Below are positions 2,565 to 47,064 of a DNA stretch of 64,000 nucleotides, piece by piece. The stretch's first letter is position 1; every line of letters begins with the position of its first letter. Under the pieces are notes generated by a model. It did no database searches, was not told the origin of the DNA, and saw nothing but the letters and a program-made list of their open reading frames with translations. The stretch covers positions 34,600-98,599 of the forward strand of contig WRNW01000001.1 of the NCBI GenBank assembly GCA_009776375.1, read 5' to 3'. Origin of the DNA: Candidatus Saccharimonadota bacterium. GTDB taxonomy: Bacteria > Patescibacteriota > Saccharimonadia > Saccharimonadales > Saccharimonadaceae. The translations under genes and the position numbers were made by a program.

Positions 2565-3715
2565 TGTTCGATTCCCCTGGCGAAGTTTAGTAGTTTTGTG
2601 TCAGATTTCATCGGCCCGATGATCTGTATGCCGTTTGGTAGGATCATGGCGGGCAACCCAGCCAGGCTAGCCATCATGCTCGCCTCGGTCGAATCAGCCG
2701 AACAAACCAAGCAATCATATCGATCAAATAATTTGTCCAGTTCACTAATCAACATCGTTCGCGCCTTCATAGCCTGCATATAATATTTCTCGAAATTCTC
2801 GGACGATAGCACATAAAAGCCAGTCAAAATATATTGTTTCATTTCGTCGCTAAAAATCTCGGCCCGTGAACGGCTATAGATCTCAGACAGAGTTTTCGCA
2901 TCTGCACGTTTACCATACCTGATCCCGTCGTATTGCATAAAGTTCGAGCTAACTTCCGCTGGCATTAGCGTCCAATAGATCGACTGAGCATATTTCGCCA
3001 TATTGAGCGAAATCTCACTAACTGAACATTTCACCTCTGTTAATTTTTTCCTTAATTGATTCGCGGTTTTTCCTTCACCGCCCACAAATTCTCTAATCAC
3101 ACCAATTTTAGATGTTGTGTTTTTTACAACATTGTCAAAATTAAAATCTTCTTTATTAAGCAAAGTACTGTCACGATCATCCGGGCCAGCCATAATTTGA
3201 CAAGCCGATTCGATGTCGGCGATCGAACTCGCGATCACGCCAATCGTGTCCATACTACTGGTCATAGTTGCTACGCCGTAGCGGCTAATCATACCATAGG
3301 TCGGTTTATAACCAATCACACCCCCGCTCGCCGCTGATTGTAGAACCGAACCGCCAGTATCAACGCCTAGTGCAAATTTTGTTGCACCATGCACGACTGA
3401 ATCAACTAACGTGTCATCGCGAGCGTAGCGTGGCGATCCAGGTTTATTGCTGGATTGCTTCGTCGTTTCACTCCTCGCAATGACCGTGTGGTGTGCCCCC
3501 CGTAATGACTTAATGTTTGCGTCAACCAAAACCGCGCCATCGGCCAGCAGCCGATCGACCGCCGTCGCCTGCACCGGCGAAACGAAATTTTCCATAATTT
3601 TGCCCGTCGCGGCGCTCTCGCGGCCTAGAGCTAAAATACGCCCGTCAATCGCGAACGATACACCGATCAGATGATTGACGTTTTTATTTTTAGCGTTTTT
3701 TGGAGGTTGGCTCAT
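2561..3715 (-). CDS. gatA: amidase-signature protein, divergent and short GatA-like subunit
   Basis: GVDTGGSVLQSAA, GYKPTYGMISRYG, SSMDTIGV and C-terminal LAGLPAMILP match the GatA/amidase fold, and it lies between gatC and gatB. Only 384 aa, with a degenerate signature (see findings). Confidence 0.6.
   Translation of the reverse strand: MSQPPKNAKNKNVNHLIGVSFAIDGRILALGRESAATGKIMENFVSPVQATAVDRLLADGAVLVDANIKSLRGAHHTVIARSETTKQSSNKPGSPRYARDDTLVDSVVHGATKFALGVDTGGSVLQSAASGGVIGYKPTYGMISRYGVATMTSSMDTIGVIASSIADIESACQIMAGPDDRDSTLLNKEDFNFDNVVKNTTSKIGVIREFVGGEGKTANQLRKKLTEVKCSVSEISLNMAKYAQSIYWTLMPAEVSSNFMQYDGIRYGKRADAKTLSEIYSRSRAEIFSDEMKQYILTGFYVLSSENFEKYYMQAMKARTMLISELDKLFDRYDCLVCSADSTEASMMASLAGLPAMILPNGIQIIGPMKSDTKLLNFARGIEQ
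3413..3484 (-). repeat. palindromic in-frame element, family A (72 bp) in gatA-like gene
   Basis: GTCATCGCGAG...GATCCAGG...CTGGATTGC...CTCGCAATGAC; translated VIARSETTKQSSNKPGSPRYARDD. Confidence 0.8.
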
Positions 3716-6483: not shown

Positions 6484-8448
6484 CTATAATTTGTTTTTGA
6501 TTTCACTAATTAGATCACGCAGTTCAGCGGCTTTTTCAAATTCGAGGTTGGCGGCGGCAAATTCCATTTTGGTGGTGAGGTCGTCGATGAGGTCCTTGTA
6601 TTCTTCGCGCGGGATTTTCTTGAGATCGAGTTTCGGTTTGGTTTCTTTTAGCGGGACGATGGCGCGGAGACCTTCGTCAATGGCTTTGGCGATCGATTGT
6701 GGAGTAATGCCATGATCCTGATTATATTTATCCTGAATTTTGCGGCGACGATTGGTTTCATCGATGGCACGCCGCATCGAGCCGGTCATCGTGTCAGCAT
6801 ACATTATCACTGTGCCATCGATATGCCGAGCAGCGCGACCAATCGTTTGGATGAGCGATTGCTCGGAGCGTAAGAATCCTTCCTTGTCGGCGTCGATGAT
6901 CGCGACTAAGGAAACTTCCGGCAGATCCAAACCCTCGCGGAGTAGATTGATCCCGACCAAAACGTCGTAAACGCCGGTGCGCAAATCGCGCAGAATGTCC
7001 GACCGCTCGAGTGTGTCGACGTCGCTGTGGATGTAGGCGACTTTGATGTCGAGCTCCTGGAGAAAGGCGGTCAGATCCTCCGCCATGCGTTTGGTTAGTG
7101 TCGTGATTAGCACACGTTGGTGTTTCGCCACGCGTTCGCGAATTTCGGCGATGACGTTGTCAATTTGATGCTCGGACGGACGAACTTCGATTTTCGGATC
7201 GAGCAGTCCAGTCGGACGGATCACCTGTTCGGCTGGTTTTGGCGAGTGTTGTAGCTCATATTCCGCTGGCGTCGCCGAAACGAAAATGACTTGGTTGACG
7301 TGATTTTCAAATTCGTCGAACCTGAGTGGTCGATTGTCGAGCGCGCTCGGCAATCTAAATCCATATTCGACCAGAACTTCTTTTCGCGCGCGATCGCCGT
7401 TATACATGCCGCGGACTTGGGGGATTGTCATGTGACTTTCGTCAATAAACATTAAAAAATCATCCGGAAAATAATCGAGCAGTGTCGCCGGTTGTTCGCC
7501 AGGTTCGCGATCGGTCAAATAGCGCGAATAATTTTCGATGCCTTTGACAAAACCAGTTTGTTCCAACATTTCGAGATCAAATTTCGTCCGTTGGGATAAA
7601 CGTTGCGCCTCGAGATATTTTTGATGCTTTTCAAAGTAATCTAGCCGCTCGGCGAATTCTTCCTTGATTTTGGAAATCGCTAATTTGACCCGTTCTTGCG
7701 GCGTGACGTAGTGCGAAGTCGGGAAAATCTTAATCGTATCCGGTTGCGCCAGGATTTCGCCAGTCAATGGATCAATCTCCAAAATTCGTTCGATATCATC
7801 GTCGAAAAATTCCAAACGATAAGCCGTTTCGCGTCCCGCCGGCAAAATATCGATCGTATCACCGCGCACCCTGAAATTGCCGCGCGCAAAATCCATGTCG
7901 TTGCGATGATATTGAATATCGTTCAAATGACGAACGAATTTGTCCTGTTTATATTTTTGCCCTTTCGTCGCGGTGATCGACATTTCGGCGTAATCGGCCG
8001 GCGAGCCGATGCCGTAAATACAACTCACACTAGCCACGATGATCGTGTCAGATCGGGTCAATAGCGCCGCCGTTGCCGAGTGGCGCAAACGATCAATTTC
8101 CTCGTTGATTCGACTGTCCTTTTCGATATAAGTATCCGACGACGCGATGTAGGCCTCGGGTTGATAATAATCGAAATAGGATACGAAATAATGTACCTCG
8201 TTCTTGGGAAAAAATTGCTTGAACTCACTAAAAAGCTGCGCCGCCAGAGTTTTATTGTGCGCAAGAACGAGCGTTGGTTTCTGTGCCTGGGCGATAATAT
8301 TCGCCATCGTGAAAGTCTTGCCCGACCCCGTCACCCCGAGCAGAGTTTGAAATTTTTCACCATCATTCAATCCCCCAACCAGCTGGCTGATCGCTGTTGG
8401 CTGGTCGCCAGTTGGCTTGAACTTAGTATGAAGGTGAAACTTTGTCAT
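6484..8448 (-). CDS. uvrB: excinuclease ABC subunit B
   Basis: [10 protein letters not shown] Walker A, FIDESH box, helicase motifs, C-terminal UVR motif ([10 protein letters not shown]). Start moved to ATG 8448 because the -10 box lies inside the longer ORF. Confidence 0.95.
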
Positions 8449-9542: not shown

Positions 9543-10058
9543 CTAGGCCGTTGCTAGTTGCCGTATCTCCGCAAGCCGCGCTTCTATGTCCGCCAGCTCA
9601 GCCAAAATCTTACCGCTTAATTTTTTGTTGCCCTTGGTAGCCACGACTGTTTTCGTTAAATCCAAGTCCGTCCGCAATTCTTTGACTTCCTTTTCTAACC
9701 GATCAAGTCGTGAATTTATTAAATCAAACTGATTTTGAATATCAGAAAATGATTTGTTTAAAATCTCATCCTGTTCGTCGAATCGTTGGTCGATTTGTTC
9801 GAGGCGCTGATTAACTTGTTCAAAACGTTTGTCTACCGCATCGAAACGTTTGTCTACCGCATCGAAACGTTGATCGACTTGTTCGAACCGTTTATCTACT
9901 GCGTCGAAACGTTGATCGACTTGTTCGAAACGTTTGTCTACCGCATCGAAACGTTGATCGACTTGTCCGAAACGTTTATCTACCGCGTCGAACCGTGGAT
10001 TAACCACCTCGCGGACTACGCTGCCAATTTGCTGTAAATCATCCTTCGTTAAACTCAT
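9543..10058 (-). CDS. heptad-repeat coiled-coil protein
   Basis: About 11 consecutive 7-aa units RF(D/E)(A/Q)VD(K/Q) encoded by 21-bp tandem repeats; AGGAGG RBS. Confidence 0.6.
   Translation of the reverse strand: MSLTKDDLQQIGSVVREVVNPRFDAVDKRFGQVDQRFDAVDKRFEQVDQRFDAVDKRFEQVDQRFDAVDKRFDAVDKRFEQVNQRLEQIDQRFDEQDEILNKSFSDIQNQFDLINSRLDRLEKEVKELRTDLDLTKTVVATKGNKKLSGKILAELADIEARLAEIRQLATA
9780..10010 (-). repeat. 11 x 21-bp in-frame tandem repeat
   Basis: Alternating units GAAACGTTTGTCTACCGCATC and GAAACGTTGATCGACTTGTTC. Confidence 0.9.
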
Positions 10059-11575: not shown

Positions 11576-12499
11576 CTAAACCAATTGCTCGATTTGTTGC
11601 GCGATTCGTTCGGCGGTCAAACCGTAAAAGTCGAGCAGCTCATCCGCGGTGCCCGATTGACCGAATTGGTCGTTGATGCCAATTCTTGTAACAGGTGTTG
11701 GTAATTTTTCGGATAACAGTTCGGTAATCGCCGAACCAAAGCCACCAGCGATTTGATGTTCTTCGGCGGTGATCACTCGACCGGTTTTTTTGACCGATTC
11801 CAGGATGGTTTTTTCGTCCAACGGTTTGATAGTTGGTACATGGATGACTTCGCAATCGATTTTATCCGCTAACATTTCGGCCGCCATTAGTAGTTGTGCC
11901 GTCATCGTCCCGGTGCCAAGTAGAGTGACGTCCTGGCCGGACTTTAATATATAGGCCGGACCGATCTCGAACTGATGTTGATTATCAAAAATCACTGACG
12001 AATCCGCCCGCGGATAACGCACATAATTTGGCCGGGCGTCGCGGGCCATCACCACCGCTACTTGCTCGGCCTCGATCGCATCACCCGGAGCGATCACTAT
12101 CATATTTGGCAAAACTCGCATCAATGCAATGTCTTCGAGCATCTGATGCGTCGCCCCATCCGGCCCGGCGTTCACCCCAGCGTGTGAACCGATAATTTTG
12201 ACTGGTTGATTATTGATACAAATCGTCGTCCGGATCTGCTCATAATTTCGGCCTGGACTAAACACTGCATAACTGGCTGCGAAAGGAATTTTACTCAGAT
12301 GCGCCATACCACTAGCGATCGTCACTAGATTTTGTTCGGCGATGCCGACTTGGATAAATCGATCGGGAAATTTTTTCGCAAACTCCCCAAACCCCACCGA
12401 ATCGGTCAGATCCGCCGCCAGCGCCACGACATTTTCGTCTAGTTCGGCCGCCCGCGCTAGACCGCGACCGAAGGCTTGACGGATACTAGCATTTTTCAT
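11576..12499 (-). CDS. tkt: transketolase, C-terminal (pyrimidine-binding) subunit
   Basis: FIQVGIAEQNLVTIASGMA; ATGA overlap with the N-terminal subunit gene. Confidence 0.85.
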   Translation of the reverse strand: MKNASIRQAFGRGLARAAELDENVVALAADLTDSVGFGEFAKKFPDRFIQVGIAEQNLVTIASGMAHLSKIPFAASYAVFSPGRNYEQIRTTICINNQPVKIIGSHAGVNAGPDGATHQMLEDIALMRVLPNMIVIAPGDAIEAEQVAVVMARDARPNYVRYPRADSSVIFDNQHQFEIGPAYILKSGQDVTLLGTGTMTAQLLMAAEMLADKIDCEVIHVPTIKPLDEKTILESVKKTGRVITAEEHQIAGGFGSAITELLSEKLPTPVTRIGINDQFGQSGTADELLDFYGLTAERIAQQIEQLV

Positions 12500-13365
12500 C
12501 GTAGTTCCTCTAGCGCTTTCCTAGCTTGTTCTTCATCCGGTGCGGTACCGTGCCATTTATAATCATTTTCCATGAAGCTAACGCCTTTGCCAGGGGTGGT
12601 GTGGGCCAAGATCACACTCGGCCGGTCGGTTTCAGCCCGAGCTTCACTGCAACCATCGATAATACTTTGTACATTATTGCCGTCAATTTCAATCACCTGC
12701 CAACCAAAAGCCGCCCATTTATCGTGCAGAATTTCCAGCGGCATGATTTCCTCTGTATCGCCGTCCAGCTGAATATTATTCCGATCCACAATCACGATCA
12801 GATTACCCAAACGATACTTAGCTGCGAACATCGCGCCTTCCCAAATATTGCCTTCGTCCAATTCGCCATCGCCGGTGATGCAATAGACGTACCTGTCATT
12901 GCGAGGAGTGGAGAGACGAAGCAATCCAGAATCATTTTCCGTCGCACTGGATTGCTTCGCTGCGCTCGCAATGACCCAGGCAGCACCCGCCGCCTGGCTG
13001 AGGCCTTCGCCCAGTGGTCCGGACGTCGTCTCTAGCCACGGTAATGCTGCGCGATGAGGATGACCCTGTAAACGCGAATTGAATTGACGCAGAGTCATGA
13101 GTTCTTCCTCGGGAATTAGGCCAGCCTCGGCCAGCGTTGCATATAGCACCGGGCAAACGTGGCCATTGCTCACCACCAAGATGTCACGATCCGGATCGTC
13201 CGGATTCTGCGGATTAAATTTCAGAATTTCAAAATACAGCGCCGCGAAAATATCTGCTAACCCTAAACTACCCGCCGGATGTCCCGACCCCGCCGCCGCA
13301 ATCATCCGAATAATATTGCGTCGGATGTTGGTGGCGTGTTGTTCGATTACTTTGATTGTTGGCAC
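12496..13365 (-). CDS. tkt: transketolase, N-terminal (TPP-binding) subunit
   Basis: GSGHPAGSLG and GDGELDEGNIWE; GTG start; carries an 81-bp palindromic insert. Confidence 0.85.
   Translation of the reverse strand: MPTIKVIEQHATNIRRNIIRMIAAAGSGHPAGSLGLADIFAALYFEILKFNPQNPDDPDRDILVVSNGHVCPVLYATLAEAGLIPEEELMTLRQFNSRLQGHPHRAALPWLETTSGPLGEGLSQAAGAAWVIASAAKQSSATENDSGLLRLSTPRNDRYVYCITGDGELDEGNIWEGAMFAAKYRLGNLIVIVDRNNIQLDGDTEEIMPLEILHDKWAAFGWQVIEIDGNNVQSIIDGCSEARAETDRPSVILAHTTPGKGVSFMENDYKWHGTAPDEEQARKALEELR
12895..12975 (-). repeat. palindromic in-frame element, family A (81 bp) in tktN
   Basis: GTCATTGCGAGG...GCAATCCAG...CTGGATTGC...CTCGCAATGAC; translated VIASAAKQSSATENDSGLLRLSTPRND. Confidence 0.85.
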
Positions 13366-13430: not shown

Positions 13431-14078
13431 TTATTCGTCGGGTTTCTCGGTGGAGGTTCTGTCCATGATACTTAGCAGCAAGGCGACAGCTGCTCCAGGC
13501 AGCTCTGATTCATCGTTGAGTTGATCTAGTTGGTTATTTAATTCATAGAGGAGTCCCAAATCTTGAGGAGTGAACATGTAGTAACTCGGTATAATCTCAA
13601 GCACATACCCAGCAATGATAGAGATTTCACCACCGTTTTTTGTGAATTCCTCCATAGCATCAGCAAGTCGCGAATCAAAAACATGTGGCGATAAAGTATC
13701 ATCCATGATATATATCCTTTGGGGTGTTTTGAGCGCTTCAAAGAAATTTTTTCTTGCAGCATCATCAGCCTCTGTTCGTCCTAAGTTATATATAGCGAGA
13801 GCAATACTTTGCGATAAATTTTCCAACTGCTGGGCGCAGTACTGACCAAGAACAGACGCAAAAGCGGTAACACGATCTTCGTCTGACGTACTTTCAACTG
13901 GAATTACATAGTCAGTTGCGCGATAAGATCTTAGCAGATCACCCAGAGCCCGTGCGACATTATTGAGATCCTCTGCGGTTTCTCGTTCGACCTGCTTGTC
14001 GTACCAGTCAGCCTCTAGGCCTAAGTCGTTGCCCCCCCCCCTCTCAGATATTGGCACACCTTCAAAGTGTATACTCAT
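13431..14078 (-). CDS. acidic hypothetical protein with G10 tract near 5' end
   Basis: Intact 215-aa ORF with no recognised motif, lodged between tkt and rpe. Confidence 0.5.
   Translation of the reverse strand: MSIHFEGVPISERGGGNDLGLEADWYDKQVERETAEDLNNVARALGDLLRSYRATDYVIPVESTSDEDRVTAFASVLGQYCAQQLENLSQSIALAIYNLGRTEADDAARKNFFEALKTPQRIYIMDDTLSPHVFDSRLADAMEEFTKNGGEISIIAGYVLEIIPSYYMFTPQDLGLLYELNNQLDQLNDESELPGAAVALLLSIMDRTSTEKPDE
14032..14041 (-). repeat. homopolymeric tract, C10 on + strand (G10 in the coding strand)
   Basis: gttg-cccccccccc-tctc; encodes R-G-G-G at codons 13-16 of ORF 13431-14078. Confidence 0.9.
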
Positions 14079-14090
14079 GCTCTTGTTATA

Positions 14091-14825
14091 CTACACTTTT
14101 GCCGCAATTACAAGAGTGTCATACGTTTTTTCGGGTTCGGGGGCTCTGGCGATCGCCGAGCCGACGTTGATAACGTCGACGCCAGCGGCGGCGATTTCAG
14201 CGATGTTTTCGGCGTTGGCGCCGCCATCCCAGGCGATTTCACACCCGTCATTCTGAACTTGTTTCAGAATCTCGCGGATCTGTGCGACTTTTTCTAGCTG
14301 TTTTAAGTCCGCGGTGCCACCCTGGTAACCGAGACGTCCGCCGAAAACTAGCACGTGATCAATCTCCTTGATAATTTCTGCGACTTTTTCTGGCGCAGTT
14401 TCCGGCAAGATGGCCACGCCACATTTAATGCCAAATTCCTTGAGATGTGCAAAGATTCGTGGTAAGTTTTCTGCTGCATTATCACTCTCGGCATGGAGGA
14501 TCACCAAATCGGGATTGAGCGCAACAATCTGGTGCAACCACTCGATCGGTCGTTTGATCATTAAATGCAAATCAACTATTCTATCATTCTGAGAAATCGG
14601 CGACTTGGTAGGATCTGTGCTGTTTTGCGGAGATTCTTCGTTACGCTCAGAATGACGAGTGTGACAGTTATCCCAATAAACCTGGTTCAGGTTGATCGTT
14701 TCGCTCGGCGCAAATTCGCCATCAGTGATATCCAGATGAATTCGCGGCGCGAAATCGAGGCGCGTGAGTTGAGAAGCATACTCATTGGGCGTCGCAGCAG
14801 TGATAGTTGGGACAACCAAGCTCAT
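14091..14825 (-). CDS. rpe: ribulose-phosphate 3-epimerase-like
   Basis: HLDITDGEFAP, DLHLM, FGG..GYQGG, WDGG; interrupted by a ~74-bp palindromic insert. Confidence 0.7.
   Translation of the reverse strand: MSLVVPTITAATPNEYASQLTRLDFAPRIHLDITDGEFAPSETINLNQVYWDNCHTRHSERNEESPQNSTDPTKSPISQNDRIVDLHLMIKRPIEWLHQIVALNPDLVILHAESDNAAENLPRIFAHLKEFGIKCGVAILPETAPEKVAEIIKEIDHVLVFGGRLGYQGGTADLKQLEKVAQIREILKQVQNDGCEIAWDGGANAENIAEIAAAGVDVINVGSAIARAPEPEKTYDTLVIAAKV
14583..14656 (-). repeat. palindromic in-frame element, family B (~74 bp) in rpe
   Basis: (A)TCATTCTGAG...CTCAGAATGAC; translated RHSERNEESPQNSTDPTKSPISQND. Ends uncertain by 1 nt. Confidence 0.65.
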
Positions 14826-25978: not shown

Positions 25979-28798
25979 TTAAATTACTTTTGCTCTCAGC
26001 TCCTTCTTCGCCAGATCCGCAATTCCATCTATTATACCAGCAATTTCTTTGCTATTCAAAGTTTTTTCATAAGACGCGAAAGTTAGTTTGAAACTGATAT
26101 TTTTGGTCTTTTTGTCCTCTCCCTGCCAGATCGAAACCGGAACACACTGAAACCATAAATTCTGTTCGGTCAAAGTTTTACAGAGGAGATTTTCGAGTTT
26201 TGCATATTCCAAATCGGAATATACTCGAAAAGTTATGTCACGTTCGACTTCTGGAAAATCGCTACGTTTCGAAACATCATTCACGCCAGACACAGCCGCC
26301 ATTAAATTATTAATATTGATTTCAAAGCCCGCCACTTCGTCGGGTAACTTGAAACTTCGCCGAACCGTCGTACGATAATTACCAACAATACCCAAAATCT
26401 TGTCGGTTTTCGCATCACGTATATCAGCCGTTCGTTTCAACTCGAATGGCACAGTCCAAGAATTTTGCACTTCGACTGATTTGAAAACCACATCCACGCC
26501 CAGAGCCTTGAATAAATCTTCGGCATATTTTTTGGCTCTATAAAAAGAGCCTTCTTGATCGCTCACCAGGACTAACCCCAACGCATTTTCAACTATCGGC
26601 ACACCGCCGTCTTTTGGATCCTTATGAAACTTGATGAATTCTTTATCGAAAACCTGGTTTATTTCGAACAGTGCGAACTCATCGAACTTGTCTTTGATGT
26701 TTGGGCTTACTTTTTCCAGCAAACTGGGCGTTATCATTTGGCGAATATATTGCAATTCAGGACTAATCGAATTGATGATTTTATAAGAGTTTTTGGAATC
26801 TTGTCCAACATTTTTTAACAGCTTTTCACTGATGAACGAATAGGTCAACACCTCATTAGCGCCAGCTTCTGACAGAATCTGGCGGATTTTCGATTTTAGA
26901 TCACCTAAAGTATCTGGTGTCGGCGACACAAAATCCCGCCGCGGCAAGCGTGCCGGGATGTTGTCATAACCGTTGAGCCGTCCAATTTCCTCAATCACGT
27001 CCTCGGCAATATGAATATCCGTTCGCCACCACGGTGCGGTAACTTTAAGGTAGCCACCGTCATTGCGAGGAGCGGAGCGACGCGGCAATCCAGAATCGTT
27101 TCTAATCGCACTGGATTGCTTTGTTGCGCTCGCAATGACGCCACTTCCCAGTGTTACTTTGAACCCAACATTCGACAGCGTGGTAATAATATCGTCAAAA
27201 GTAAAACCACTACCCAGCAGATTATTCACTTGTTCTGTTGTAACTTTTACAACAGGTGGTTTAACCGGTTTTGGATAAGCATCAACAATTTCGCTAACCG
27301 ACTTCATACCATGGTCGTTCGTCAGCGTTCTGATCGCTTCGCATAAAACCGGATCGGTCAAGGCTGGTGGTTGACCTTTGGTGAAACGCGTGATAGCTTC
27401 GCTAAAAATTCCGTGTCTAAACTGCGTTCCACGTAGATTATACAAACTAAACGTCGCCGATTCGATGACGATGCGGCGGGTCGATTCGTCGATTTCGGTA
27501 TTTTTACCACCCATCGCCCCAGCCAACGCTACTGGCACGTTGTTGCTGGTGATAACGATGTCACCCGGATCCAGCTCGATCGTTTTATCATCGAGTAGCT
27601 CGAGTTTTTCATTCTTTTTCGCCGCACGAACGATTATATGAGCGTTGTCATTCTGAGCCGCAGACGAAGAATCTCTTGAACTTTCTTTAGATCCTTCGCT
27701 CCGCTCAGGATGACAGCCTACGGCTATCAACTTATCATAATCAAAAGCATGCAGCGGCTGTCCGGTTAACAGCATCAAATAATTCGTCACATCCACAATC
27801 GGATTAATCGAACGCATGCCAGATTTGGCTAGCAGCACCGCCATCTCGGATAAATATTTCGACGGCTTGTCGTCAAATCCATCCAACACCAACGCCTGAT
27901 AGCGTGGGCAAAGTTTCGGATCTGTTATCTCAACATCCAATTCTATTGTGTCATTGCGACCGCGAGCGCGCGAAGCGAGCGTGGCGGGAAGCAATCCAGT
28001 ATCATTATCAGCCGCACTAGATTGCTCTTGCCCAGCACCTGCTTTAGCTGGTGCTGTGGTCGTCGTTACACTCCTCGCAATGACATCTGGCTCTTGAAAT
28101 TCTTTCCCCAAAATCCCCGCGACTTCGCGCGCAAAACCAATCACGCCAAAGCAATCTGGTCGATGAGTCAGCGATTTATTTTCAATATCTAGTAGTGTGT
28201 CATTCAGGTCAAATACTTCGGCGAAGTCATCGCCCGGTTTCGCCATTTCGGGGTTTATCTCGATAATTCCTGCGTGATCCGCGCCCAGGTCTAGCTCGTC
28301 CATAGCGGCAAGCATCCCAGCCGATTCCACCCCCATGACTTTACGTTTATCTAAAACCAATGGTTCAGAATTAAATGTTGCTGGCAAAACTGTTTTTGGT
28401 GGCAACCAAACCGCCAACATACCAGTCCGCACATTCGGTGCGCCACAAACAACCTGAATTAAATTGTCATCGCGATCCGCCCCACCGTCATTGCGACCGC
28501 GAGCGAGCGAAGCAAGCGTGGCGGGAAACAATCCAGGGTCATCGCCAGTCGCACTAGATTGCTTCGTCGTTACACTCCTCGCAATGACACCAGTATCAAC
28601 CTGACAAACTGTCAAGTGATCACTGCCGGGAATTTTTTCAACCGATCTGACTTCAACAATTTTAATCCCACGATATTTTTCGCCCAAGTCGATCACTTCT
28701 TCAACTTCAACCAATCGTGATCCGATTAGCTCGACCAACTCGTTTGTCGGCAGATCAATATCAACGTATTTTTTCAACCAATCTAATGAAATAATCAT
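25979..28798 (-). CDS. pheT: phenylalanine--tRNA ligase beta subunit
   Basis: MIISLDWLKKYVDI start, tRNA-binding, B3/B4 and C-terminal domains; 939 aa because of four palindromic inserts. Confidence 0.9.
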   Translation of the reverse strand: MIISLDWLKKYVDIDLPTNELVELIGSRLVEVEEVIDLGEKYRGIKIVEVRSVEKIPGSDHLTVCQVDTGVIARSVTTKQSSATGDDPGLFPATLASLARGRNDGGADRDDNLIQVVCGAPNVRTGMLAVWLPPKTVLPATFNSEPLVLDKRKVMGVESAGMLAAMDELDLGADHAGIIEINPEMAKPGDDFAEVFDLNDTLLDIENKSLTHRPDCFGVIGFAREVAGILGKEFQEPDVIARSVTTTTAPAKAGAGQEQSSAADNDTGLLPATLASRARGRNDTIELDVEITDPKLCPRYQALVLDGFDDKPSKYLSEMAVLLAKSGMRSINPIVDVTNYLMLLTGQPLHAFDYDKLIAVGCHPERSEGSKESSRDSSSAAQNDNAHIIVRAAKKNEKLELLDDKTIELDPGDIVITSNNVPVALAGAMGGKNTEIDESTRRIVIESATFSLYNLRGTQFRHGIFSEAITRFTKGQPPALTDPVLCEAIRTLTNDHGMKSVSEIVDAYPKPVKPPVVKVTTEQVNNLLGSGFTFDDIITTLSNVGFKVTLGSGVIASATKQSSAIRNDSGLPRRSAPRNDGGYLKVTAPWWRTDIHIAEDVIEEIGRLNGYDNIPARLPRRDFVSPTPDTLGDLKSKIRQILSEAGANEVLTYSFISEKLLKNVGQDSKNSYKIINSISPELQYIRQMITPSLLEKVSPNIKDKFDEFALFEINQVFDKEFIKFHKDPKDGGVPIVENALGLVLVSDQEGSFYRAKKYAEDLFKALGVDVVFKSVEVQNSWTVPFELKRTADIRDAKTDKILGIVGNYRTTVRRSFKLPDEVAGFEININNLMAAVSGVNDVSKRSDFPEVERDITFRVYSDLEYAKLENLLCKTLTEQNLWFQCVPVSIWQGEDKKTKNISFKLTFASYEKTLNSKEIAGIIDGIADLAKKELRAKVI
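27059..27139 (-). repeat. palindromic in-frame element, family A (81 bp) in pheT
   Basis: About 85 percent identical by eye to the tktN copy; translated VIASATKQSSAIRNDSGLPRRSAPRND. Confidence 0.85.
27647..27714 (-). repeat. palindromic in-frame element, family B (~68 bp) in pheT
   Basis: GTCATTCTGAGCCGCAGACGAAGAATC...GATCCTTCGCTCCGCTCAGGATGAC; translated CHPERSEGSKESSRDSSSAAQND. Confidence 0.7.
27950..28084 (-). repeat. palindromic in-frame element, family A with nested 33-bp hairpin module (135 bp) in pheT
   Basis: Same backbone as 28487-28588, plus CTCTTGCCCAGCACCTGCTTTAGCTGGTGCTGTGGT. Confidence 0.8.
28487..28588 (-). repeat. palindromic in-frame element, family A (102 bp) in pheT
   Basis: GTCATTGCGACCGCGAGCG...CAATCCAGG...CTAGATTGC...CTCGCAATGAC. 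An extra arm fragment, GTCATCGCGATCC, lies at 28466-28478. Confidence 0.8.
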
Positions 28799-29259: not shown

Positions 29260-29594
29260 TGATGCTCCTTTAGCCATTTTTCTAATCTAGCCGCGCCGCG
29301 CTGTAATTTTGCGTCGATGGTTTTGTCAACCTTGTCCGCTCCAAAAATCAATCGCAGATTACCAACTGTCACTAGCACGTCGGCAATTTCCTCGCGGATA
29401 CGTTGGTGGAGATTTTCCATTAACGCCTCCGGGTTGGCCTTGTTGTTGTCGCGCCAAGTGCTACAAAGCTCCTTCGTCAGTTCGGCCATTTCTTCGATTG
29501 CGATCTTTATTTCAGCATCGACGCCCCAAACATCAGTAAATCGCTGCATGATTTCTTCGCGTTCAGCCGGGGTGAGTTTTGTCGTTTGGGTCAT
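29256..29594 (-). CDS. MazG-like all-alpha NTP pyrophosphohydrolase
   Basis: AIEEMAELTKE and IREEIADVLV (EExxE ... ExxD pattern). Confidence 0.65.
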   Translation of the reverse strand: MTQTTKLTPAEREEIMQRFTDVWGVDAEIKIAIEEMAELTKELCSTWRDNNKANPEALMENLHQRIREEIADVLVTVGNLRLIFGADKVDKTIDAKLQRGAARLEKWLKEHQ

Positions 29595-30244
29595 CTTCGC
29601 TTCCTCGTGTTGACTTTTGCACGCGGCTTTGCTATACTCAGTTTACTATAGCCTTCGGGCTCCGAGGGCCTCGCAACTGCGAGGTCCGATTTTTGTTCAG
29701 TGAATTGCCCAATAAACGCCTCTTTGATTTTTCCGTAATCTTCAGTGGGCAGTGTGTATATCTTGCGTAACAGTCGTCGCGAATCAATTAGGCGCGCTTG
29801 TGATATCACCGCCGCATACATTCTGCCGCCAAACAAATATGGTATATGATGTAGATCATCTTTTATTCTACGAGACAACGGAATCGCCATTAGCATGCGA
29901 TGATTATATTTTTTTAATACCAAAATCGGCCGTTCGAACAGTTCATTTTTACCATCTTGTTCATGTCCAACATTAACGCCAATGGCCGAATACCAAACCT
30001 CGCGTTCCTTGAAGCCAATAAAATGCGCACGTGAATTAATGTGTTTCTTGTTCTCGTTCCAGCCATCGAAATCTTTTTCATATGCATTATTAGCCTGGTT
30101 GCAGCTAGTGTTTGATTTTGCGTCGATCTCCGACACAAGCTTCAGCACGCCCTCTGCAATACCATCAAAATCATACGTGTTAAACATGTCGTCGTGATTT
30201 CTTTTTAGAATGTCTCTTAAATCATTTATCACGCTAACGCTCAT
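29591..30244 (-). CDS. PemK/MazF-like domain protein with ~80-aa N-terminal extension
   Basis: REVWYSAIGVNVGHEQDGKNELFERPILVL, IPLS and ISQARLIDSRRL parallel MazF GDLIWVDFDPTKGSEQAGHRPAVVLS ... ADQVKSI. Confidence 0.55.
   Translation of the reverse strand: MSVSVINDLRDILKRNHDDMFNTYDFDGIAEGVLKLVSEIDAKSNTSCNQANNAYEKDFDGWNENKKHINSRAHFIGFKEREVWYSAIGVNVGHEQDGKNELFERPILVLKKYNHRMLMAIPLSRRIKDDLHHIPYLFGGRMYAAVISQARLIDSRRLLRKIYTLPTEDYGKIKEAFIGQFTEQKSDLAVARPSEPEGYSKLSIAKPRAKVNTRKRR
29610..29638 (+). promoter_or_regulatory. antisense promoter TTGACT-17-TGCTATACT inside the MazF-like CDS
   Basis: -35 at 29610-29615 and -10 at 29633-29638. Confidence 0.45.
29645..29695 (+). ncRNA. candidate ~50-nt cis-antisense RNA opposite the MazF-like gene 3' end
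   Basis: Lies downstream of the TTGACT-17-TGCTATACT promoter. Has a UUCG hairpin (29650-29661) and a 9-bp GC stem (29666-29687) followed by GATTTTTG. Confidence 0.35.
29666..29695 (+). terminator. intrinsic terminator of the candidate antisense RNA
   Basis: 9-bp stem GGGCCTCGC/GCGAGGTCC, loop AACT, then GATTTTTG. Confidence 0.4.
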
Positions 30245-44544: not shown

Positions 44545-47064
44545 TCAGGATTTAACCACGATATTGATAATTTTCTCTGGTACATAGATGATTTTGGCGG
44601 GAATTTCGTCGTTGGTAAATTTGGCGACGTTGTCGAGCGCCAGCGCCGCCCGCTCAATATCAGGTTGTGCCGCGTCGGTATCGACAGTGATTTCGCCGCG
44701 CAACTTACCGTTCACTTGAACAGCGATCGTCATTTGACTGTCGGTCAGATAGTTTTCGTCGTACCGTGGCCAATCGGTCGTTTCAATCGAGTTTTGATTT
44801 CCCAACTGTTCGTACAGTTCACTAGCGATATGCGGTGCGAATGGCGCTAGTAGCTCGAGCAATGTTTCCAAGTTAGCGCGACTAACTTTGGCTGGATTTT
44901 TGCTCAGCACGTTCAAGTATTCCATTAGTCCCGCGATTGCTGTGTTAAAGTTCATCTTGTCCAGATCGTCGGTGATCTTTTTGATAGTCCGATGTTCGGC
45001 GCGCAATAGTTCATCGTCCGCTTTGATCGCTGGTTTTTCTTTAACCTGTTGTGTCAGATTCCAAACCCGGGTTAAAAAGCGATAACAGCCGGCGACCGCT
45101 TCTGGGCTCCACGGTGTTGTTTGATCATACGGCGCCAGAAAAGTCACCCCCAGGCGCGCCGCGTCGGCACCATAACCACTGTTAATAATCTCTGTCGGAT
45201 CAACCACGTTACCCAAGGATTTTGACATTTTACGCCCATCGGCCGCCAAAATTATCCCCTGCCCTCGTCGAGCGGCGTAGGGCTCAGGTGTCGGCACTAA
45301 TCCTTGATCATAGAGGAATTGATGATGGAATCGCGAATAGAGGAGATGCAGAGTAGTGTGTTCCATGCCGCCGAGATAGAGATCAACCATATCCCAATAT
45401 TTTAACTTCTCGGGGTCGGCAAAAACTTTATCATTATGCGCGTCATAATAGCGCAGATAATACCAGTTTGACCCCGCCCAATTCGGCATCGTGTCAGTTT
45501 CGCGTTTGGCGGGTTTACCACATTTCGGGCAAGTCGTCTTGACCCAAGATTCAATCCTCGATAAAGGTGACTCGCCATCATCGGTCGGTTCGTAATGCTC
45601 AACTGCTGGTAGCTCAACCGGCAAATCCTTTTCAGGCACCGGCACCGCACCGCACTTATCACAATGAATAATCGGGATCGGTTCGCCCCAATAGCGTTGG
45701 CGGGAATAGACCCAGTCGCGGAGTTTGTACTGAGTTTTTCGCTTGGCCACGCCGCGCTCGATCAACCAATTGGTGATTGTTTTACTAGCTTCGGTTGAAT
45801 TTAGACCATTAAACTCACCAGAATTAACCATCGTACCTTCATCTAAATAGGCGGTTTTAGTTATATCGCCACCGCTGACAACTTCGGTGATTGGTAAATT
45901 AAATTTAGTCGCAAATTCGTAGTCACGTTCGTCGTGCGCCGGGACGGCCATGATTGCGCCGGTGCCGTAGCCCATCAAAACGTAATCGGCGATCCAGATC
46001 GGGATTTTTTCGTTTGTCGCTGGGTTGATGGCATACGCACCGGTCGGTACACCGGTTTTTTCGCGATCGGTTTCCTGACGTTCGATTTCGGATTTCCCCT
46101 CAACCGCGCGGATATAAGTCCCGACTTCGTCCTTTTGCTCTAGCGTGGTGATTTTTTGGACTAACGGGTGCTCTGGTGCCAAGACCATAAAAGTCGCGCC
46201 GAAAATCGTGTCGGGGCGGGTGGTGAAAACTTTGATCAGATTGTCATCCCTCACCACTTTTTCGGAAAGTGGTGAGGGATCCAGTGTGGTTTTTTGGCTG
46301 GATTGCTCTTGCCCAGCACCTGTTTCGCTAGAAACTGGTGCTGTGGTCGCTTCGCTCGCAATGACGAAGTCGATTTCTGCGCCTTCGCTACGACCAACCC
46401 AATTAATCTGTTGATCGGCGATGCGGGCGGGATAATCAACATTTTCTAAACCATCGATCAGCCGTTCGGCGTAATCGGTAATCCGCAGCATCCATTGCTT
46501 CAACATTTTTTTCTCGACCAAGTTTTCGCAACGTTCGTGACGACCATTAATCACTTCTTCGTTAGCCAAACCAGTTTTACAAAATGGACACCAGTTGATG
46601 GCGATTTCGTCCTGATAGGCCAATCCCGCGCGGTAAAATTGCAAAAACATCCACTGTGTCCAGCGGTAAAATTCCGGGTCGGTGGTGCTAAAACTCCGAT
46701 TCCAATCGATCGAACAACCCATCGCGTCGAATTGACGACGCATGTTGGCGGTGTTCTGTTTGGTCGCAATTTGCGGCGAGATTTTATTTTTAATCGCAAA
46801 GTTTTCGGTCGGTAGGCCAAATGCATCATAACCCATCGGAAATAACACGTTAAAACCATTCGCTCGTTTGTAGCGCGCGATGATATCGCCGAGCGTATAT
46901 TCGCGCAAATGTCCCATATGTAATCCCGTGCCCGAAGGATAAGGAAACTCCGTCAAGATCGTAAATTTCGGCCGATCAGAAAAATCTTCGGCCGTATGTG
47001 TGCTAGAATTCGACCAAATCTTTTGCCATTTCGGCTCCACCTCGCTGGGATTGTAGCGTTTCAT
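44545..47064 (-). CDS. leuS: leucine--tRNA ligase
   Basis: HMGH (HIGH) and KMSKS motifs and the TTRPDT editing-domain block; carries a 123-bp composite palindromic insert. Confidence 0.95.
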   Translation of the reverse strand: MKRYNPSEVEPKWQKIWSNSSTHTAEDFSDRPKFTILTEFPYPSGTGLHMGHLREYTLGDIIARYKRANGFNVLFPMGYDAFGLPTENFAIKNKISPQIATKQNTANMRRQFDAMGCSIDWNRSFSTTDPEFYRWTQWMFLQFYRAGLAYQDEIAINWCPFCKTGLANEEVINGRHERCENLVEKKMLKQWMLRITDYAERLIDGLENVDYPARIADQQINWVGRSEGAEIDFVIASEATTAPVSSETGAGQEQSSQKTTLDPSPLSEKVVRDDNLIKVFTTRPDTIFGATFMVLAPEHPLVQKITTLEQKDEVGTYIRAVEGKSEIERQETDREKTGVPTGAYAINPATNEKIPIWIADYVLMGYGTGAIMAVPAHDERDYEFATKFNLPITEVVSGGDITKTAYLDEGTMVNSGEFNGLNSTEASKTITNWLIERGVAKRKTQYKLRDWVYSRQRYWGEPIPIIHCDKCGAVPVPEKDLPVELPAVEHYEPTDDGESPLSRIESWVKTTCPKCGKPAKRETDTMPNWAGSNWYYLRYYDAHNDKVFADPEKLKYWDMVDLYLGGMEHTTLHLLYSRFHHQFLYDQGLVPTPEPYAARRGQGIILAADGRKMSKSLGNVVDPTEIINSGYGADAARLGVTFLAPYDQTTPWSPEAVAGCYRFLTRVWNLTQQVKEKPAIKADDELLRAEHRTIKKITDDLDKMNFNTAIAGLMEYLNVLSKNPAKVSRANLETLLELLAPFAPHIASELYEQLGNQNSIETTDWPRYDENYLTDSQMTIAVQVNGKLRGEITVDTDAAQPDIERAALALDNVAKFTNDEIPAKIIYVPEKIINIVVKS
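46243..46365 (-). repeat. composite palindromic in-frame element (123 bp) in leuS
   Basis: Left module GTCATCCCTCACCAC...GTGGTGAGGGATCC. Right half shares the GATTGCTCTTGCCCAGCACCTG...CTGGTGCTGTGGTCG module with pheT and ends CTCGCAATGAC. Confidence 0.75.

Follow-up and report, generated by a model that had tools for sequence, protein, structure and literature searches.

Palindromic repeat elements read in frame within pheT of a Saccharibacteria genome, one of them carrying a further hairpin

The pheT gene of a member of the Saccharibacteria (Candidatus Saccharimonadota bacterium, contig WRNW01000001.1, positions 34,600 to 98,599; this 64-kb stretch is hereafter called the window) carries four palindromic DNA elements inside its coding sequence, and each of them is read in the frame of the host gene. 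The explanation that we consider probable is that these inserts are non-autonomous, selfish palindromes of the kind represented by repetitive extragenic palindromes (REPs) and Rickettsia palindromic elements (RPEs), here read as protein loops, and that one of them secondarily acquired a small hairpin. As part of the same explanation, each insert would be a head-to-head pair of REP-like units that bear a CGTC tag.

The host gene, located at 25979-28798 on the minus strand, was defined from the list of open reading frames (ORFs) and its translation, and encodes a product of 939 amino acids in which the Pfam domains of PheT are all present (B3_4, B5, tRNA_synthFbeta, FDX-ACB and tRNA_bind). An identical protein in the database, from a 163,841-bp contig, is annotated as phenylalanine--tRNA ligase subunit beta of a Candidatus Saccharibacteria bacterium. 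An earlier, sequence-only reading of this DNA had considered the protein unusually long against a bacterial PheT length of about 800 amino acids. This holds: among the Saccharibacteria homologues listed, most are 793-830 amino acids long and the 939-residue protein is the longest, and homologues of 816-825 amino acids lack all four inserts. The repeats encode about 14% of PheT, with roughly 136 extra residues distributed over four loops.

Anatomy and reading frame of the four elements

Repeat detection and self-BLAST recovered three copies of one family (family A) and one copy of another (family B) in pheT, as the sequence-only reading had described; all four lie on the minus strand. The family-A element at site 1 (28487-28588, 102 nt), found by repeat and palindrome detection, encodes PheT residues 71-104 (VIARSVTTKQSSATGDDPGLFPATLASLARGRND), is stop-free in codon phase 0 and folds at z = -4.1. 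Site 2 (27950-28084, 135 nt, residues 239-283) holds an element of the site-1 type that is enlarged by a 33-nt hairpin. The family-B element at site 3 contributes 69 nt in frame (27647-27715, residues 362-384, CHPERSEGSKESSRDSSSAAQND), its own GTCAT..ATGAC palindrome spanning 27647-27714. Site 4 (27059-27139, residues 554-580, VIASATKQSSAIRNDSGLPRRSAPRND) carries a canonical 81-nt family-A copy, 86% identical to the copy found at 12895-12975.

The palindromes end in GTCAT...ATGAC, and whole elements fold much better than shuffled sequences, with z between -3.2 and -4.2 in pheT and between -2.9 and -6.5 overall. The terminal sequence GTCATTGCGA (allowing up to one mismatch) occurs 17 times in the window as compared with 6.8 +/- 2.6 times in shuffles, and none of 100 shuffles reached 17; its 10 exact matches are mostly termini of family-A copies that were independently detected as repeats. 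By eye, and counting the flanking bases, (C/T)GTCAT can be read at about 13 of the 16 element ends that the window contains.

From these copies a common unit plan can be drawn: a (C/T)GTC tag, a stem base that starts from AT, a variable apical part, the second half of the stem base, and a 3-nt tail (CCA, CTA or CTC). AT follows the tag in all units (ATTGC.., ATTCT.. or ATCCT..), and AT also precedes the tail. The inner tails read ...GCAAT-CCA-G in family A and CTA or CTC in family B. Every copy is a dimer with the tags facing outward and the tails inward, separated by a spacer of 5-51 nt, and the two units of a dimer pair together into one long hairpin.

A partial terminal arm, GTCATCGCGATCC, lies at 28466-28478 on the minus strand, only 8 nt from the site-1 element and with one mismatch to the element terminus, which confirms that a partial arm sits directly beside the fourth copy, as had been claimed. 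This arm and the spacer 28479-28486 jointly encode GGADRDD (residues 105-111). In a codon alignment the CGC GAT GAC of the arm pairs with the right terminus of the site-1 element of a related pheT gene, P0002; the arm is also similar to the final ~14 nt of the adjoining element, as if these had been duplicated. We propose that this arm is a leftover or a stutter of element turnover. A stuttered terminus was also observed in the leuS gene of another homologue, P0272 (L131 10700-10804, at the site that is filled in the leuS gene of the window): there the left terminus occurs three times with a 24-nt period (GTCATCGCGAGCGAAAACCCTCCC / GTCATTGCGAATAAAACCTCCTCC / GTCATTGCGAGC...) and reads VIASENPP-VIANKTSS-VIASKQS, and the same gene holds a second family-A copy at 12476-12538. 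Such terminal relics seem to be a regular by-product.

The inserts respect the reading frame of their hosts. All six family-A copies in the window, as well as one in gatB just outside it (on segment L127), have a length divisible by three, lie in codon phase 0 and are free of stops; the frame GTC ATT GCG..., giving V-I-A ... R-N/D-D, is the one used whichever way the asymmetric arms point, and frame 3 of family A ends in TGA every time. For both family-B copies a single frame is used, the host ORFs remain open throughout and retain their complete Pfam domain sets, and arithmetic on gene starts places six coding copies in relatives in the same frame. Constraints on frame, length and stops would be pointless if the inserts were removed before translation, and we infer that they are read through into mature PheT. 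At site 3 of another PheT, P0043, the loop is 8 residues longer and reads SASLRGASATKQ; judged by its sequence this looks like a family-A arm in frame 2, so that the frame-1 rule may fail in some lineages.

The positions of the inserts coincide with predicted loops of the protein. Aligned by HMMER to the solved PheT chain 2rhs_B, the protein splits into five blocks, with breaks at query residues 70/111, 242/280, 357/387 and 552/581, across which the chain positions of the solved structure are nearly continuous (70/72, 201/204, 279/283 and 448/448). An AlphaFold model built with 63 homologues has a mean pLDDT (predicted local distance difference test) of 82.8, falling below 50 at residues 74-108, 246-280, 370-381 and 555-580 with flanks above 90; these segments coincide with the residues encoded by the elements (71-111 with the partial arm, 239-283, 362-384 and 554-580). 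The inserts are thus predicted by the model to form disordered loops hanging off intact domains.

The 33-nt hairpin module and the history of the sites

The 135-nt copy at site 2 differs from the 102-nt copy at site 1 by exactly 33 nt; identity between the two copies is 88% over the left 77 nt and 100% over the right 25-26 nt. The extra segment, CTTGCCCAGCACCTGCTTTAGCTGGTGCTGTGG (28027-28059, minus strand), is itself a hairpin of -10.1 kcal/mol (z = -3.7) and is read TTAPAKAGAGQ within ...TTTTAPAKAGAGQEQSS.... The sequence-only reading was therefore right that the longer copy equals the shorter one plus a hairpin in a multiple of three, although the string that it quoted for the insert was 36 nt long and included 2+1 flanking bases.

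It had also taken the nested insertion as an event of the pheT copy, and this part is not supported. The comparison of pheT with itself and with leuS revealed shared family-A elements, and the element of leuS (46243-46365) carries the same module, here 39 nt long with a longer loop (46308-46346), at the identical junction GATTGCT|...|TCG within a different arm background. The nesting is therefore not specific to pheT. The sequences suggest either a preferred site for the module within the unit or a composite that was spread by copying or gene conversion.

Hairpins of the module type also occur outside this nested position. On contig L123 of a relative, a lone intergenic hairpin downstream of a gene (14045-14073) matches the leuS version at 30 of 33 positions, a second hairpin of this type lies at 383-411, and a 228-nt intergenic family-A element (7563-7790) contains three more in different places. 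This last element fills the gap directly 3' of the stop codon of the relative's pheT gene, and its hairpins, CCCAGC(A/C)CC...GG(T/G)GCTGGG, are placed one per arm with one in the spacer. The ~82 kb of this genome that we covered (the 64-kb window and 8.9 kb on each side) yielded no free copy of the module.

Larger collections were also scanned for the module. The pattern GCCCAGCACCN{5,30}GGTGCTGTGG hit at least 119 loci of a genome collection, nearly all of them chance matches in GC-rich genomes and none with family-A flanks; the pattern is too loose to be informative. A stricter scan of a metagenome collection that does not hold the source contig gave two matches, of which one looks like chance. 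The other (L120 5440-5470) is a hairpin, CTTGCCCAGCACCTGCGCCGCTGGTGCTGTGGTCGTC, that matches the module together with 6 flanking bases; it is read in a different frame, within an RHS-like ORF from an organism of 36% GC, and could be either a free-standing relative or a coincidental match. A hairpin of the form GCCCAGCACC...GGTGCTGTGG was further seen at L025 6311-6341 and L033 857-902 (Portnoybacteria, Patescibacteria bacterium), where common upstream motifs (...CGATGAGAC...) make it look like part of a conserved structured non-coding region.

The four sites themselves appear to be old. In a neighbour-joining tree of 63 PheT sequences, from which the insert columns were removed, the window PheT and P0002 are sisters. 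All four sites are filled in both proteins, and most other sequences have short loops there. A codon alignment of the two genes places the junctions at the same codons at sites 1, 3 and 4, with an offset of three codons at site 2. These junction codons are shared even though third codon positions are only 44% identical between the two genes, and it is therefore most likely that all four sites predate the split from the P0002 lineage.

The residents of these sites have changed since. At site 1 the elements of the window and of P0002 are related but inverted, at site 2 they contain different extra segments, and at site 3 a family-B element in the window stands against a canonical CGTC dimer in P0002, with a common left junction and only TGTCATCCTGA shared. 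At the same time, arms are identical over 34/34 and 36/36 nt between elements in different genes of different species. Swapped contents together with near-identical arms across species point to turnover or homogenisation, whether by replacement, conversion or recent spread. The pheT gene of a further relative, P0003, has inserts at additional sites (L123 5899-5925 and 5255-5350): the first is an in-frame hairpin, CCCATCACCAC...GTGGTGAGGG, read ...GDPITTSDGDGEGRS..., and the second is a canonical CGTC-type dimer read CHPELDSGS...IPDQVRND.

For the 33-nt difference the evidence supports an insertion rather than a deletion. That the 135-nt composite is ancestral and the shorter copies lost the hairpin precisely, the outcome that the sequence-only reading had named as its own refutation, seems to us improbable. 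Hairpins are indeed prone to precise loss by replication slippage, the two pheT copies are mutually the closest in the window, and the module sits at the same junction in two copies. Yet the canonical unit has 26-27 amino acids, and none of the 150 best matches to the family-A profile in a library of 1.84 billion proteins contains the module in any of six frames; the remaining copies in the window and in relatives keep an uninterrupted GATTGCT-TCG; the elements of sister lineages at the very same sites (P0002 pheT site 2 and P0272 leuS) lack the module; the hairpin exists alone; and neither a target-site duplication nor microhomology that could drive a precise loss was seen at the module junctions. 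If the module was inserted, it may have entered in place in pheT as a mobile hairpin, with leuS receiving a second, independent insertion at a preferred target. This is a serious candidate to which we give somewhat less than even weight. It would agree with the near-identical lone hairpin in the relative's intergenic DNA, with the similar hairpins elsewhere in another family-A element, with the different lengths of the nested hairpins in pheT and leuS, and with their different arm backgrounds (TCGTCGTTACACTCC... and TCGCTTCGCTCG...). The identical junctions, however, are explained equally well by one insertion followed by conversion or by copying of the composite; no duplication or recognisable motif of the target was found, and the ~82 kb covered of this genome contain no free copy of the module.

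Two other accounts concern the inserts as a whole. Lineage-specific functional loops of PheT, interacting with the host or with tRNA and palindromic by accident, might explain why the sister PheT has longer segments at all four sites, as other Saccharibacteria have at several of them, and why the inserts are kept in an essential gene of a reduced genome. We regard this as very unlikely, since the same sequences recur in transketolase, amidase, GatB, LeuS and Rpe and are intergenic in other phyla, and the peptides that fill one and the same site show no conservation from one sister lineage to the other and are predicted to be disordered. Hardly any weight is left for an assembly or binning artefact that misjoined repeats into the gene: the contig is indeed metagenome-assembled, but the reading frame is intact through four inserts, the identical protein comes from several sources with two contigs carrying it, the 163,841-bp contig is syntenic with relatives, and independent assemblies of relatives have inserts at the same sites. 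We also considered and rejected an intein (none of the required size or motifs was present), an intron or ribozyme (the frame constraint would have no reason, and Rfam returned only two tRNAs at gathering score in the whole window, with no match to an element), and low-complexity slippage (which does not suit palindromic inserts whose homologues occur in further genes and in other phyla).

Several points weigh against the reading of the inserts as selfish REP/RPE-type palindromes. Single family-A and family-B arms of the window do not fold alone (z between -0.4 and +1.4) and hence fall outside the definition of a CGTC REP, which asks for 8-9 bp of stem and a 4-5 nt loop. Filling of the same sites could also have arisen if permissive hot spots were hit independently more than once. 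Translation of the inserts is argued from frame and length constraints, and insertion is deduced from relatives with at most 65% amino-acid identity, an empty-site allele of this genome not having been seen. No target-site duplication, target motif or mobilising enzyme was found. Finally, the count of free versus nested modules comes from ~82 kb of one genome, the two large scans being uninformative.

Preferring nonetheless the selfish palindromes, we envisage the following course of events. The four sites would already have been filled in the ancestor shared with P0002, and their residents would later have been replaced or homogenised in each genome. Those copies would persist that are multiples of three, lie in codon phase 0, present a stop-free hydrophilic frame and fall in loops that tolerate extra residues; they would be expressed together with the rest of PheT, at the RNA and the protein level, as four disordered loops on the surface with the domain cores intact, and they would be neutral. 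In this lineage a separate small hairpin, the 33-nt piece, would have entered the apical part of one unit, and the composite would then have come to lie in both pheT and leuS, through two insertions at a preferred site or through copying or gene conversion between copies. A bolder version would have a cut-and-replace or conversion process directed by the tag (CGTCAT) still active in essential genes of these very compact genomes, with small untagged hairpins entering units independently. Sites at the same codons, swapped contents, arms identical over as many as 36/36 nt between species with pheT third codon positions close to saturation, and stuttered termini could reflect such an active process, although we think it rather doubtful. 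If it were true, Saccharibacteria would offer a tractable view of how transposase-less CGTC-type REPs and RPEs are mobilised.

Further copies, genome context and the wider family

Eight copies lie in the window and one more in segment L127, distributed over pheT (4), leuS, a transketolase subunit gene, an amidase-family gene, the ribulose-phosphate 3-epimerase gene rpe, and gatB. The transketolase N-terminal subunit gene carries an 81-nt family-A copy in frame (12895-12975, minus strand). In the amidase-family gene (Pfam Amidase), which lies between GatC-family and GatB-family genes and is probably gatA, a 72-nt family-A copy is read in frame (3413-3484, minus strand); one of its arms matches the site-4 element in the pheT gene P0009 at 100% over 34 nt, and the other at 97% over 29 nt. 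The element of rpe (14583-14656, minus strand) is family-B-like, with uncertain boundaries, and is read HSERNEESPQNSTDPTKSPISQND. The gatB copy (L127 12224-12298), just outside the window, is in frame and belongs to family A.

The element of leuS, on the minus strand like the others, is a family-A-type heterodimer of 123 nt (residues 234-274) with the lowest z of all (-6.5). One of its units holds the module, and the other is a long-stem hairpin, GTC-AT-CCCTCACCAC...GTGGTGAGGG-AT-CCA. At first sight CCCTCACCAC...GTGGTGAGGG resembles a second module, but it is better read as a long-stem tagged unit of the form GTC-AT-stem-AT-CCA. The gene leuS spans 44545-47064 of the window, and the element immediately precedes the ...VFTTRPDT motif with which the editing domain opens. 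LeuS homologues have at this site no element, other elements or whole domains. Many LeuS proteins of Saccharibacteria (among P0272-P0390) are ~960-1270 amino acids long and contain NUDIX (PF00293), Ser_hydrolase (PF06821) or other domains, and several of the longer ones show, when aligned, large insertions where the window protein carries its element. Filling of one site by other repeat families or by NUDIX and hydrolase domains supports the notion that there are a few permissive sites.

The genome leaves little room outside of genes. Summing the gaps between called genes, 779 of 22,820 bases are intergenic in segment L128 around pheT, which makes it ~96.6% coding, and elements can therefore land almost only in genes. 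The Pfam gene tables of the ~82 kb list no transposase families, and no target motif or duplication was found in the flanks of the coding copies. Mobility of the elements is suggested by their copy number, their distribution and the near-identical arms across species. Two other features of the window were observed. The ORF at 9543-10058 (minus strand, 171 amino acids, no Pfam match) contains at 9776-10000 a tandem array of ~8 copies of a 21-nt (7-residue) unit, with heptads of the form (F/V)D(A/Q)VDKR/QRF, and has the look of a coiled-coil protein built from repeats. Toxin-type domains (CdiA_C and a weak PemK_toxin match) are encoded by small ORFs that stand among the housekeeping genes near pheS and pheT, at ~1750-2150 (L127 9451-9852) and ~29591-30244 (L128 8555-9208).

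Family A extends well beyond this genome. A profile of its peptide matched 508 protein clusters in the library of 1.84 billion representatives, mostly short ORFs with 2-8 units; the most frequent unit has 27 amino acids (81 nt) and the canonical range is 26-27 amino acids (78-81 nt). The motifs VIARSEATKQS, HCEERSDEAI and SLRGA are three reading frames of the same family-A DNA, and short hypothetical proteins with any of these motifs look like translations of the repeat. A protein word search with the 45-residue peptide of site 2 returned no candidates, probably owing to a limit of the word index. On the DNA level the 81-nt copy has full-length matches in Novosphingobium (39 places on one replicon), Methylosinus and Methylocystis, and a partial match to one arm in Methylobacterium. 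The one Novosphingobium copy that we inspected is intergenic, between convergent ORFs. In Novosphingobium resinovorum pSA1 (NZ_CP017076.1) the intergenic family-A palindrome at L130 2501-2581 runs 5 nt past GTCAT (ACTTC...GAAGT), and no feature is annotated under the 39 matching places. These matches across phyla, together with the intergenic copy, characterise family A as a cross-phylum palindrome that is normally extragenic.

Comparison with known palindromic repeats

In-frame read-through of palindromic repeats is already known from Rickettsia, and pheT provides a further example, which extends the phenomenon of selfish palindromes as protein loops to a bacterium of the candidate phyla radiation. 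A practical lesson is that repeat DNA can lie behind odd lengths and "novel insertions" of proteins from these bacteria. With its nested hairpins, and with sites that are conserved while their contents are swapped, the system offers material for understanding how CGTC-type repeats spread with no transposase of their own. Our literature search found nothing specific on this family, or on palindromic or MITE-type elements (miniature inverted-repeat transposable elements) in bacteria of the candidate phyla radiation, which is no proof of absence.

The elements resemble MITEs in being small, non-autonomous and present in many copies with terminal inverted repeats, and in that in-frame fusions are possible. 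Unlike MITEs, they are dominated by the hairpin rather than by terminal inverted repeats with a duplicated target: no copy has flanking direct repeats, no residues are duplicated relative to insert-free homologues, and in the ~82 kb there is no insertion sequence whose ends would mark it as the parent. With REPs tagged GTAG and their doublets, the REPINs, they share hairpin repeats arranged as inverted doublets that fold into one larger hairpin. REPINs are mainly extragenic, carry the GTAG tag and are mobilised by RAYT (REP-associated tyrosine) transposases. Here, in contrast, no GTAG or CTAC stands at the ends of elements or module, there is no RAYT gene in view, and the gene tables contain no Y1 transposase.

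A closer likeness is found with the CGTC superfamily of REPs, whose members are described as having a CGTC or TGTC (or CCTC) tag, a stem of 8-9 bp starting from AT, a loop of 4-5 nt and a tail that is mostly CCA (PMC3733652). Most are head-to-head dimers, intragenic copies encode 20-30 residues, and no dedicated transposase is reported for them; small stem-loops within the dimer spacers have been described as well (Di Nocera, De Gregorio & Rocco 2013, PMC3733652). The elements reported here share with these REPs the tag, the AT start of the stem, the 3-nt tail, head-to-head dimers and intragenic copies. They differ in the stem base of family-A and family-B units, which has 5 bp around an interior of 12-18 nt in place of the 8-9 bp stem and 4-5 nt loop, in that the dimer folds as one hairpin, and in that the extra hairpin lies inside a unit and not in the spacer. 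At the corresponding sites of P0002 and P0003 the elements agree fully with the description, with a tag, an 8-9 bp stem from AT, a 5-6 nt loop and a 3-nt tail (z between -2.5 and -5.4). The likeness is to the description in PMC3733652 and not to a family consensus, so that the elements are not assigned to one of its four families, and the supplements of that paper contain no match to the element peptides or termini.

The CGTC superfamily also provides the link to RPEs. It includes, besides dRS3 of Neisseria, CGTC-1 and CGTC-4 of R. conorii, which are RPE-6 and RPE-4 (PMC3733652), and the link of our elements to RPEs is thus indirect, through the superfamily and not through direct sequence homology to RPE families. 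Like the RPEs of Ogata et al. 2000 (Science 290:347), as portrayed in PMC10969869, they are short multi-copy palindromes, in frame in unrelated housekeeping genes of a reduced genome, that encode a stereotyped peptide at positions tolerated by the fold, with several per gene possible. In contrast to RPEs, their host belongs to the Patescibacteria/Saccharibacteria and the family is also intergenic in Alphaproteobacteria, they measure 63-135 nt as against ~150 bp for the RPEs first described (PMC10969869), and their sites are shared between species with contents swapped. We therefore class them as related to CGTC-type REP dimers and as functionally analogous to RPEs.

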